Below the pieces are notes generated by a model that did no database searches, had not been told where the DNA came from, and saw only the letters and a program-made list of their open reading frames with translations. From a virus (lineage: Duplodnaviria > Heunggongvirae > Uroviricota > Caudoviricetes), in the IMG/VR virus record IMGVR_UViG_3300029711_000132: a stretch of 6,231 nt of DNA, one strand, 5' to 3'. This document shows, one piece after another, positions 4,120 to 6,231 of this stretch. A program made the translations under genes and the position numbers. How positions within the stretch are numbered: the stretch's first letter is position 1; every line of letters begins with the position of its first letter.

Positions 4120-4809
4120 ATGAAAACAACACTCTCAGAAAGACTTAAAGAAGCCAGATTAGCGCGAGGCCTTACACAAAAGGCGCTTGGGGATTTGGTC
4201 GGGGTTAGCCAGGCTGCTATTCAGAAAATCGAAACAGGGAAAGCTAACCAAACAACTAAAATCGTGGAGATCGCGAACGCTTTGGGTGTACGCGCAGAAT
4301 GGTTATCTTCTGGCGTTGGAAATATGTCAGACAGTACAGTGCAACCAATACAATCAACTGTCAGCCATTCCAAATACTTCAAAATTGACGTTCTTGATAT
4401 AGAAGTCAGTGCCGGGCCAGGTGTAATCAACCGTGAGTTTGTAGAAGTTCTACGCTCGGTTGAGTACTCGTTTGACGATGCTCGTCACATGTTCGATGGC
4501 AGGAAGGCGGAAAATATCCGCATCATTAACGTGCGAGGTGACAGCATGTCAGGGACGATCGAACCAGGTGACCTGCTGTTCGTTGATATCACTGTTAAAT
4601 CTTTCGACGGTGATGGCATCTATGCGTTTCTGTACGACGACACTGCCCATGTAAAACGTCTTCAAATGATGAAGGATAAGCTGCTGGTTATCTCTGATAA
4701 CAAGAGCTACTCGCCGTGGGACCCGATCGAGAAAGACGAGATGAACCGGGTGTTCATATTCGGTAAGGTCATTGGAAGCATGCCGCAGACGTACAGGAAG
4801 CATGGTTAA
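4120..4809 (+). CDS. cI: CI-like prophage repressor (N-terminal HTH, C-terminal LexA/S24-type autocleavage domain)
   Basis: 229-aa ORF. N-terminus LTQKALGDLVGVSQAAIQKIETGK is an HTH; Ala-Gly candidate cleavage site in EVSAGPG (residues 98-99); catalytic Ser in RGDSMSGTIEPGD and Lys in AHVKRL. Divergent from cro across the operator region. Confidence 0.9.
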   Translation: MKTTLSERLKEARLARGLTQKALGDLVGVSQAAIQKIETGKANQTTKIVEIANALGVRAEWLSSGVGNMSDSTVQPIQSTVSHSKYFKIDVLDIEVSAGPGVINREFVEVLRSVEYSFDDARHMFDGRKAENIRIINVRGDSMSGTIEPGDLLFVDITVKSFDGDGIYAFLYDDTAHVKRLQMMKDKLLVISDNKSYSPWDPIEKDEMNRVFIFGKVIGSMPQTYRKHG

Positions 4810-5038: not shown

Positions 5039-5419
5039 ATGAGAAAAATCCTAATCGCTGCCATGATGGCATCTGTATTGGCTGGGTGTGCTTCTTCAGG
5101 CAACCAGCAACTCAAAAATGAAACTGAAATTAGTGTCCAGTCTAAACTTCAGGAAGGTAAAACAACCAAGAATGAGGTTAAATCTTACTTTGGTTCTCCT
5201 GATGCTGTTTCATATACTGACAGTGGAAACGAGATCTGGAAGTACGCCTTTGCAAAAGTAAAAGTGAATGGCACCACTTTTATTCCATTCTATGGATTAT
5301 TCCATAATGGAACGAACGGTACGAAAAAAGAACTTACTATTCTTTTTAACGATGACACGATTAAGAAATACACAATGTCAGAAACCCAAATAAACTCGAA
5401 ATCAGGTTGGGCTGACTGA
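5039..5419 (+). CDS. Predicted outer-membrane lipoprotein with BamE-like (SmpA/OmlA-type) domain; accessory gene in the rex position downstream of cI
   Basis: 126-aa ORF. N-terminus MRKILIAAMMASVLAGC has a lipobox (LAGC, Cys17) with Ala at +2, predicting outer-membrane sorting. Mature part EGKTTKNEVKSYFGSPDAVSYTDSGNEIWKY...KKELTILFNDDTIKKY parallels the E. coli BamE pattern GMTQQQVAYALGTPL...NTWFYVF...QQTLTLTFNSSGVL as I recall it. Weak RBS (GGAA about 8 nt upstream); strong terminator downstream. Confidence 0.8.
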   Translation: MRKILIAAMMASVLAGCASSGNQQLKNETEISVQSKLQEGKTTKNEVKSYFGSPDAVSYTDSGNEIWKYAFAKVKVNGTTFIPFYGLFHNGTNGTKKELTILFNDDTIKKYTMSETQINSKSGWAD

Positions 5420-5427
5420 TAATCATA

Positions 5428-5455
5428 CCCGGCAACCGCGCCGGGTTTTCTTTTC
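5428..5455 (+). terminator. Rho-independent terminator after the lipoprotein gene
   Basis: Hairpin CCCGGC-aaccgc-GCCGGG (5428-5445) followed by TTTTCTTTTCC, beginning 9 nt after the stop codon. Confidence 0.7.
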
Positions 5456-5565
5456 CTCCCCCTCATAACTCATACCGTCCAAAAAACCACCACACCTCAC
5501 TTCAGTTATCGCTATGCGATGCAAGTCACAAAATAAATCCATCCTAAATACAACCAGTTATATTA

Positions 5566-5622
5566 AAAACAACCGATAAAACAACTTTTGTTGTTGACGA
5601 TAAAACAACTATAGTTTTAAAT
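5566..5622 (+). promoter_or_regulatory. OL/pL-like operator-promoter cluster
   Basis: Three direct AAAACAAC copies (5566, 5578, 5602) and a palindrome ACAAC-TTTT-GTTGT (5581-5594) share the ACAAC/GTTGT core of the OR half-sites. Candidate promoter: -35 TTGACG (5594-5599), 17-nt spacer, -10 TTAAAT (5617-5622), pointing rightward away from cI as lambda pL does. Confidence 0.4.
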
Positions 5623-5815
5623 AAATTCATCGCAACGACACAACGATACGATAACCACCTGTTTCACCGTTGCGATGACCGCTTAGATCCGCAGTTTGAA
5701 TTTCAGCAGGCTTCGGGGAGTGCGAGGGGTGAAACGGACGCGTGAACGTCGGTGTGACCAGCTGAAATCAACTCAACATTTCATACCTTAGTCGCTTCAA
5801 CGAGGCGGCTTAGTT

Positions 5816-6100
5816 ATGACAACCGGCGGCCATCCACCGCCTGAATACGCGCAGAAGTCTTTATATGTTCAGCAGCCCAGCTTACGGGCAGGAGTTTTTA
5901 TGGTTCATCAACATTACGGAACGCAGACCGTTAATCGCGGTGCGGTCATGCCAGGAATGCTGGTCAAACGCAAAGATGGTACCTGGACTGCATCAGCTAA
6001 TTTACGCGGACGACTTTATCTGCATCGCGGCATTGAGCGCACTTATATACCCGTGACTTGCTCGTGGAAGTTTTTCTCGACGGACGCGGCAACGGTCTGA
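5816..6100 (+). CDS. Hypothetical protein (94 aa) in the position lambda uses for N; no arginine-rich motif
   Basis: Longest ORF in this interval, with a modest GAGG about 11 nt upstream. Composition is not obviously coding-like and there is no homology that I recognise; may be non-coding. Confidence 0.3.
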   Translation: MTTGGHPPPEYAQKSLYVQQPSLRAGVFMVHQHYGTQTVNRGAVMPGMLVKRKDGTWTASANLRGRLYLHRGIERTYIPVTCSWKFFSTDAATV

Positions 6101-6182
6101 ATCACTAATCCCCTTTCCTGTTTTCCGAATCAGCCTGGCATTCCGCGGGCGATTTTTTCACAGCCATTTTCAGGAGTTCAGC

Positions 6183-6231
6183 CATGAACGCTTATTACAT
6201 TCAGGATCGTCTTGAGGCTCAGAGCTGGGCG
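6183..6231 (+). CDS. 5' end of an ORF running off the window ([16 protein letters not shown]...)
   Basis: ATG preceded by AGGAG at 7-8 nt spacing. Only 16 codons are visible; identity unknown. Confidence 0.45.

Follow-up and report, generated by a model that had tools for sequence, protein, structure and literature searches.

A Conserved RNA Structure in the pL Leader of N-less Lambda-Like Prophages Shares Its Slot with the put Antiterminator RNA

Here, we provide comparative evidence that the early-left leader of an N-less lambda-like prophage contains a real, conserved and unannotated RNA structure, designated module B. It lies within the window, that is, the whole 6,231-nt stretch of phage DNA analysed in this work:

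5677..5770, plus strand: module B, conserved structured RNA element (~90 nt), defined by the RNAalifold consensus and by pair counts

Sequence comparisons show that module B is interchangeable with the put antiterminator RNA in the same leader slot, and that it is tied to the pL promoter, not to a particular gene. We consider it a serious, if still tentative, possibility that module B is a cis-acting RNA which modifies RNA polymerase for antitermination as put does, while belonging to a new structural type. This reading comes from position and comparison, from which we infer polymerase binding or modification and the suppression of termination. An earlier note on this DNA, made from its letters, had proposed a structured leader downstream of a pL-like promoter, and the conserved RNA described below bears this out.

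Results

The Window Carries the Immunity Region of an N-less Lambda-Like Prophage

Over its length, the window represents the immunity region of a lambda-like prophage that lacks N, with the early-right operon running on the minus strand and the following features:

1462-1289, minus strand: ren-like gene
2163-1459, minus strand: P
3179-2160, minus strand: replication gene O
3715-3176, minus strand: YdaT/cII-like gene
4015-3785, minus strand: cro-like gene (YdaS family)
4120-4809, plus strand: cI repressor (HTH and S24 peptidase)
5039-5419, plus strand: lipoprotein gene with its own terminator at 5427-5446
5560..5628, plus strand: OL/pL, with −35 TTGACG at 5594-5599 and −10 TTAAAT at 5617-5622
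6183..6231, plus strand: start of gam (16 residues), Gam being annotated in all relatives

The 17-nt spacer of pL carries the operator AAAACAACTATAGTTTT. Together with this spacer, the −35 box is a near-copy of the pR promoter preceding the cro-like gene, so that the earlier identification of a pL-like promoter holds. Since the similarity to phages of other immunity types starts at about 5629/5630, the pL transcript is inferred to begin at ~5629. The closest complete phages, PhiR26_1, Perceval, 4A7 and Lambda_4C10, have the order pL, kil, gam, bet, exo onward and no N gene; tblastn detected no homologs of lambda N, HK022 Nun or phi80 ‘N’ in PhiR26_1 or the window.

A boxA matching the consensus at all 12 positions, GCUCUUUAACAA, follows immediately on the stop codon of the cro-like gene (3771-3760, minus strand), where nutR would lie. 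No obvious boxB hairpin lies beside it, and no N gene is present. This pR-side boxA also occurs in PhiR26_1, which has the same immunity type, and is absent from the other module B phages examined; a tie between module B and the pR boxA was rejected, the boxA being confined to the immunity type of the window. Terminator-like sites are found downstream in both early operons of PhiR26_1 (L008 2000-1986, minus strand, and 11828-11842, plus strand). In the window-type phage, the sole terminator-like site between pL and gam-bet-exo is a weak one at 6133-6150.

Several other features of the region were recorded. The lipoprotein gene, which gives a weak BamE-like match (phrog_3135), lies between cI and pL, i.e., in the position of lambda rexAB, and its slot is variable among relatives, being filled with a SIR2 gene, an ASCH gene or others. 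Inside the O gene (~2620-2760), there are four or five TTACCTGATTCGGGTAA-like repeats, probably origin iterons (cf. lambda ori), and a run of N at 1941-1994 masks part of the P gene. The prophage appears to be interrupted, since an ORF fragment at 1-345 on the minus strand was recognised by eye as a putative IS3-family transposase orfA.

The Leader Is a Mosaic of Three Modules

On comparison with relatives, the leader (5629-5899) splits into module A (5629-5676), module B (5677-5770) and module C (5781-5861), and the sequence from ~5843 onward belongs with kil. The first module forms the very 5′ end of the transcript:

5629..5676, plus strand: module A, 5′-terminal hairpin with arms AUCGCAACG (5629-5637) and CGUUGCGAU (5668-5676)

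This hairpin of 9 bp with a variable 30-nt loop is seen in the MFE folds. Its arms are kept in relatives, and in the O157-type immunity variant the 5′ arm AUUGCAUCG still pairs at 8 of the 9 positions. No compensatory change was detected among the relatives compared, and a common substitution, G5637A, opens the top pair. Module A travels with the promoter region, and its opening CAUCG(A/C)AACG is common to the pL transcripts of HK639, HK225, phi80 and phiEt88. It is likely to serve as an mRNA stabiliser. The MFE of the 211-nt stretch 5620-5830 is lower than that of shuffled sequences (z = −2.3), an excess attributed mainly to the hairpins flanking module B.

Module B Folds into Two Adjacent Stem-Loops Kept by Compensatory Changes

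The RNAalifold consensus obtained from 24 distinct module B sequences comprises two adjacent stem-loops:

5680-5724, plus strand: SL-I, helices 5680-82/5722-24, 5689-91/5714-16 and 5693-98/5707-12 (P1), loop AAUUUCAG at 5699-5706
5725-5763, plus strand: SL-II, helices 5725-26/5762-63, 5728-30/5757-59, 5734-35/5752-53 and 5737-39/5748-50

In this fold, 98.9% of the cells are paired, against at most 39% in the slid-partner controls. The sequences fall into two classes, the second being ~80% identical to the first and found in IMG/VR contigs and one metagenome contig. Between class 1 and class 2, three pairs are changed on both sides (A5693-U5712 to C-G, G5694-C5711 to A-U and A5738-U5749 to G-C), two further pairs are altered (U5695-G5710 to C-G and A5734-U5753 to G-U), and all the remaining differences fall in loops or bulges, so that no pair is disrupted. 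At the G5736xG5751 mismatch, some class-2 copies have G-C and one locus (L250) has U-G instead. Within class 1, 13 of 64 variants carry G5729A, which costs the 3-bp helix 5728-30/5757-59 one of its pairs. Because only two sequence classes were found, the independent compensatory events are few, perhaps two or three. The G-U pairs point to an RNA read in the orientation of pL.

The consensus fold is the MFE structure of a class-2 homolog (L135), where it makes up 21% of the ensemble; it is also contained in the MFE structure of the isolated window element, and it forms first when prefixes of the transcript are folded. The MFE of 5629-5775 (−40.6 kcal/mol) is nevertheless unexceptional vs. shuffled sequences (−41.4 ± 3.5, z = +0.22). 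Thus, the evidence for the module B structure is comparative and not thermodynamic.

The 3′ tail CUGAAAU (5762-5768) is complementary to AUUUCAG (5700-5706) in the SL-I loop, and this complementarity could correspond to a pseudoknot or to an alternative helix. The earlier note had read it as part of one long-range helix between GAATTTCAGCAGG at 5698-5710 and CCAGCTGAAATC, the latter lying in fact at 5758-5769, one position downstream of the 5757-5768 given there. These segments do pair at 11 positions, but with A5700 bulged and an A5708xA5760 mismatch; the AUUUCAG/CUGAAAU core is conserved and compatible with pairing but never covaries, and CAGGCU (5707-5712), the 3′ half of the 5′ arm, covaries with 5693-5698 and not with the proposed partner 5758-5762. 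The enclosed hairpin CGGACG-cgtgaa-CGTCGG (5735-5752) fared better: it is present and maintained through compensatory changes, albeit in an imperfect form of 4 bp plus 1 bp interrupted by G5736xG5751. Both pairings appear in the MFE folds of 5620-5830 and 5629-5775, and covariation favours a fold which keeps the inner hairpin and partly departs from the long helix.

The same segment could be read as coding for a small arginine-rich peptide, (M/V)KRTRERRCDQLKSTQHFIP, starting from GTG/ATG at 5729 and bearing an N-like RNA-binding motif. A GGAG stands 8 nt upstream of 5729, several polymorphisms occupy third codon positions, and the peptide resembles the lambda N motif TRRRERR. Moreover, the class-1 G5729A haplotype, i.e., the 13 of 64 variants with an ATG, always carries a TAG at 5789, which yields a 20-aa Arg-rich ORF, MKRTRERRCDQLKSTQHFIP (5729-5791). 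However, the class-2 homologs read GUG UAA and have no ORF, in most class-1 copies the frame continues into kil, the Arg codons form the arms of the covarying hairpin P3, and the ‘synonymous’ A5734G is equally well explained as a change from A-U to G-U. The micro-ORF was rejected because its second codon is a UAA stop in class 2, and we regard a peptide-coding role as very improbable. The read-through of most GTG haplotypes from 5729 into kil accounts for ‘Kil’ annotations of 126-140 codons. In GenBank phage records, the module B RNA is either unannotated or absorbed into such over-extended ORFs.

Module B Is Widespread and Linked to pL

A search of 5426 complete E. coli genomes detected the leader stretch 5625-5815, and module B with it, in 2222 of them (at least 90% identity over the segment), with nothing annotated at this place. 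Pattern scans for a third sequence class gave nothing new apart from one more class-2 variant. The Rfam scan proposed in the earlier note returned no family for the leader: no covariance model matched 5400-6231 even at E up to 10, nor the class-2 leader. An HK022 control was also negative; Rfam lacks a put family, so that this result says nothing about put. A literature search by sequence strings gave nothing relevant on module B.

Module B is found behind at least 10 different immunity promoters, starting ~50-60 nt past the inferred transcript start, and the first genes or ORFs following it vary between phages; downstream of the class-2 copies, there are unrelated genes or ~500 nt of non-coding RNA. 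There is one copy per phage, at pL only. No second copy was found on the pR side in PhiR26_1 or the other loci, a 20.8-bit match lying in a tail-fibre gene. Within class 1, no excess conservation of the leader is demonstrable or can be claimed, because diversity is low over the whole leader-kil-gam segment, kil and gam being equally invariant.

Some class-2 leaders have peculiarities of their own. Right after module B, two of them (L232 ~10366-10400 and L204 ~4690-4715) carry a strong RBS, AGAGGAG, and a 3-codon mini-ORF, AUG AAG CAC UAA, followed in L232 by ~500 nt without a convincing gene. In phages with a long pL leader after class-2 module B, a 47-nt stretch (4959-5005 of L204) matches positions 237-283 of bacterial 16S rRNA (Rfam SSU model, 32 bits, E = 1.7e-7), and visual inspection revealed a similar rRNA-like stretch in one put-type leader.

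Module B, put and boxA-Like Segments Alternate in One Slot

In four IMG/VR contigs (L135, L183, L236 and L242), the module B homolog resides inside the flanks that in HK639 bracket the annotated putL, namely CCAUCGAAACGAAACAUCGA...GCCAGCGGCGAAGUGGAG on the 5′ side and UUACCAGCAGCUCUUUGCGAGGGGCUGACGGUAAACAA on the 3′ side; the HK639 occupant of this slot is annotated as ‘putL-like antiterminator RNA’. Two contigs (L234 and L241) have HK639's own pL and operators with module B replacing put, and two (L235 and L236) combine the pL of phi80 with module B. Conversely, phiEt88, whose operators and pL are very similar to those of the window, carries putL. The 98 classifiable leaders which share the 5′ flank differ in what comes next: 35 have put, 33 a phi80-type boxA-like segment and 13 module B, the other 17 being mostly boxA-like variants. 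These swaps and the census identify module B as a member of a small set of cassettes that replace one another at a fixed site close to the promoter.

In the pL leaders of phi80 and HK225 (L109 1790-1830 and L091 270-320), a hairpin is followed by boxA-like UGCUUUUUAACAA in the slot of put and module B. This boxA-like occupant is presumably an antitermination signal, too. The annotated 98-aa ‘N’ of phi80 has no arginine-rich motif. Given at least 10 immunity types upstream and unrelated first genes downstream, the role of module B would be operon-level and not gene-specific.

Comparison with put and nut Signals

The earlier note had drawn an analogy with the put RNAs which HK022 uses in place of N. 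As far as location is concerned, the analogy is apt: module B starts ~50 nt after the inferred pL start, it occupies the HK639 putL slot between the same flanks, and PhiR26_1 lacks an N gene. It does not extend to sequence or structure. A put covariance model (R2) was built from 11 putL/putR sequences with the consensus GUCGG...GGCG...AGG..GA...CAAU and two stems, and it recovers its own puts at 71-96 bits. With filters on or off, it gave no score in the window leader or the class-2 module B loci; the best match in the window reached 9.3 bits at 1131-1201 on the minus strand. Module B as a put RNA by sequence or structure was rejected on these grounds. The same model found no put copy in the module B phages and a single put in HK639.

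Another possibility is that module B is a nut-like site recruiting a trans-acting factor, either an unrecognised phage protein or host Nus factors. It would fit the boxA-containing segments held by the same slot in phi80-type phages and the perfect boxA after the cro-like gene of the window phage. It would also fit the alignment of the window leader with the lambda nutL/N-leader, which, in the same register from the transcript start, scores 97 vs. 62.8 ± 10.9 for shuffled sequences, 12 of 1000 shuffles scoring as high, and which places the G-rich block GGGGAGUGCGAGGGGUG opposite the lambda GGGGUGUGUG stretch, which we take to be boxC. On the other hand, there is no boxA (CGCUCUUA / GCUCUUUAACAA) within three mismatches in 5620-5900, the window stretch ACCGCUUAGAUCCGC aligned with lambda boxB is not self-complementary and cannot form a hairpin, and the covariance model of module B (R1) gives the lambda nutL region no score. 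Nor does the phage encode a homolog of N, Nun or phi80 ‘N’ to act there, and the first genes after module B vary. Module B as a nut site proper was rejected, having neither boxA nor boxB hairpin nor N, and the broader idea of a recruitment site seems unlikely to us.

The collinearity with the lambda leader may reflect a common descent of these leaders. Module B might then be an inert relic of a lambda-type nutL/N-leader left after the loss of N, which merely seems conserved owing to a recent spread of the pL-kil-gam segment, and the low class-1 diversity over this whole segment would agree with that. We find a relic quite improbable, however, considering that class 2 has diverged by ~20% with its differences confined to loops or compensatory, and that the element recurs behind so many immunity types.

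The Downstream ORF Is kil Preceded by Module C

The earlier note had placed a 94-aa ORF at 5816-6100, which is correct, and had considered it a doubtful ORF or a novel small early protein. From its homologs, the ORF is kil, a known phage gene for a cell-division (FtsZ) inhibitor, with an extension at the N-terminus:

5900..6100, plus strand: kil (FtsZ-inhibitor family, PF27398), SD AGGAG at 5890-5894, start ATG at 5900
5816..5899, plus strand: N-terminal over-extension of the 94-aa ORF, the upstream ORF of module C read in frame into kil

The ORF matches phrog_294 (E = 2e-27, residues 20-78), and position 1 of NCBIfam PRK11354 (FtsZ inhibitor) aligns to its residue 29. The PRK11354 score of 41.5 bits is under the cutoff of 92; the match spans residues 1-49 of Kil, the C-terminus beyond being frameshifted. 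Among 103 homologs listed, 101 have PF27398. The PGAP annotation of three E. coli genomes includes a 68-aa ‘phage encoded cell division inhibitor’ whose start corresponds to 5900, and the Kil homologs of Klebsiella, Enterobacter and Salmonella are ~68 aa long. Consequently, the kil part of the ORF is its C-terminal 66 residues (29-94), so that the protein is not novel, and the first 28 codons are a separate upstream ORF fused in frame. The kil start can now be set at the AGGAG-ATG with its five-base spacing. The modest RBS mentioned earlier does stand before ATG 5816, but this ATG opens a widespread short upstream ORF and not kil. The ORF is thus the kind of ordinary gene, known from homologs, which the earlier note had named as a refutation; the leader is not. 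Compared with the 68-aa consensus, the last ~17 Kil residues are frameshifted by an insertion of TA (2 bp) within the TATATA run at 6044-6049, a change likely to have inactivated a toxic gene in a defective prophage. A Kil-based search with one genome per species gave 17 loci with mostly other sequences upstream of kil, none of them containing module B.

The upstream ORF is part of the third leader module:

5781..5861, plus strand: module C, hairpin 3, upstream ORF start MTTGGHPPP, hairpin 4 and motif GCGCAGAAGUCUU (5849-5861)

In hairpin 3, UCAUA (5781-85) pairs with UAUGA (5815-19) around an inner stem 5790-95/5805-10, extendable to 5798/5802, so that GAGG and ATG 5816 are buried. In five sequence classes, all 6 pairs of the inner stem change on both sides, and 95.7% of the cells are paired vs. 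78% in shuffles and at most 42% in slid controls. Hairpin 4 is formed by GGCGG (5825-29) and CCGCC (5837-41). The upstream ORF, MTTGGHPPP...EVLY, comprises 16-21 aa in most phages and is fused to kil in the window family. Motif GCGCAGAAGUCUU is kept in different reading frames and is thus conserved as nucleotides, not as a peptide. For AUGACAACCGGCGGCCAUCCACCG in module C, part of the invariance is an artefact of ascertainment through the search pattern. Module C has further copies in phi80, HK225, HK639 and numerous IMG/VR contigs, in nearly all cases immediately behind a terminator T-run, with examples at

2496-2600 of L109
1500-1600 of L091
33171-33057 of L004, minus strand

A reasonable guess is that it controls the translation of the downstream gene.

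One might suppose that the whole leader is an ordinary regulatory 5′UTR for mRNA stability, Rho access or kil translation, maybe with a switch between SL-I and the long-range helix, and that distal termination is unaffected. The toxicity of kil, the first gene after pL, the 5′-terminal hairpin of module A and the start site buried in hairpin 3 are all in line with this, as are two near-isoenergetic folds (−40.5 kcal/mol for a transcript ending at 5765 and −40.6 for one ending at 5772). Yet module B is linked to pL and not to kil, its class-2 copies standing before unrelated genes or non-coding RNA, and the kil-adjacent module C is separable, being found elsewhere after terminators and without module B. 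Such a 5′UTR is, in our view, rather unlikely.

Discussion

To our knowledge, put and the Bacillus EAR element are the only two cis-acting RNAs known to render bacterial RNA polymerase resistant to termination by themselves. We return here to the possibility that module B acts in the same way. Transcribed at the start of the early-left transcript, it would fold co-transcriptionally into two adjacent stem-loops, and the SL-I loop could pair with the 3′ tail into a pseudoknot or an alternative helix. The element would convert RNA polymerase to a termination-resistant form, like put of HK022 and HK639, thereby allowing a phage devoid of N to express gam-bet-exo and the genes beyond downstream terminators. 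Antitermination in the right operon would have to differ, as no module B copy exists there and the window has a perfect boxA instead. With slightly more reserve, we may put the whole proposal as follows: module B could represent a second family of antiterminator RNAs that modify RNA polymerase, without structural kinship to put. It would be built of two stem-loops plus a pseudoknot between loop and tail and would trade places, as a cassette, with put and boxA-type signals in lambdoid pL leaders; ~40% of complete E. coli genomes carry it.

Should module B be a third such RNA, unrelated in sequence, the put-polymerase cryo-EM model could be set against an independent structure. This would also explain the expression of the early-left operon in the very common N-less lambda-like prophages, a group that includes O157:H7 prophages and the isolated phages Perceval and PhiR26_1. 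Finally, it would mean that antitermination signals are cassettes which lambdoid phages exchange at one set position of the leader.

It remains to compare the leader with known systems. Residues 29-94 of the ORF belong to the same family as Rac KilR and the phage Kil FtsZ inhibitors, from which the window copy differs by the C-terminal frameshift and by the 28-residue extension derived from the upstream ORF. With the phi80/HK225-type pL leaders, the window leader shares its start, CAUCG(A/C)AACG, and the module C cassette ahead of kil; those leaders differ in being ~400 nt long and in having the boxA-like UGCUUUUUAACAA segment in place of module B. The lambda nutL/N-leader is alike in its position after pL, in a weak collinear similarity from +56 to +127 in the same register, in a hairpin at the position of P1 and in a G/U-rich block opposite GGGGUGUGUG, but the module B leader lacks boxA, the boxB hairpin and the N gene.

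The put RNAs of HK022 and HK639 are cis-acting antiterminators that bind the zinc-binding domain of the RNA polymerase β′ subunit (PMC9378689). Module B has no sequence similarity to them, its helix lengths differ, its loop-tail complementarity is absent from the put descriptions compared, and its antitermination activity is putative. The resemblance concerns architecture and place: module B follows closely on pL in a lambdoid phage devoid of N, it consists of two adjacent stem-loops with bulges (~85 nt vs. ~70-74 nt for put), and, present as a single pL copy like put in HK639, it fills exactly the position, flanks included, that putL has there.
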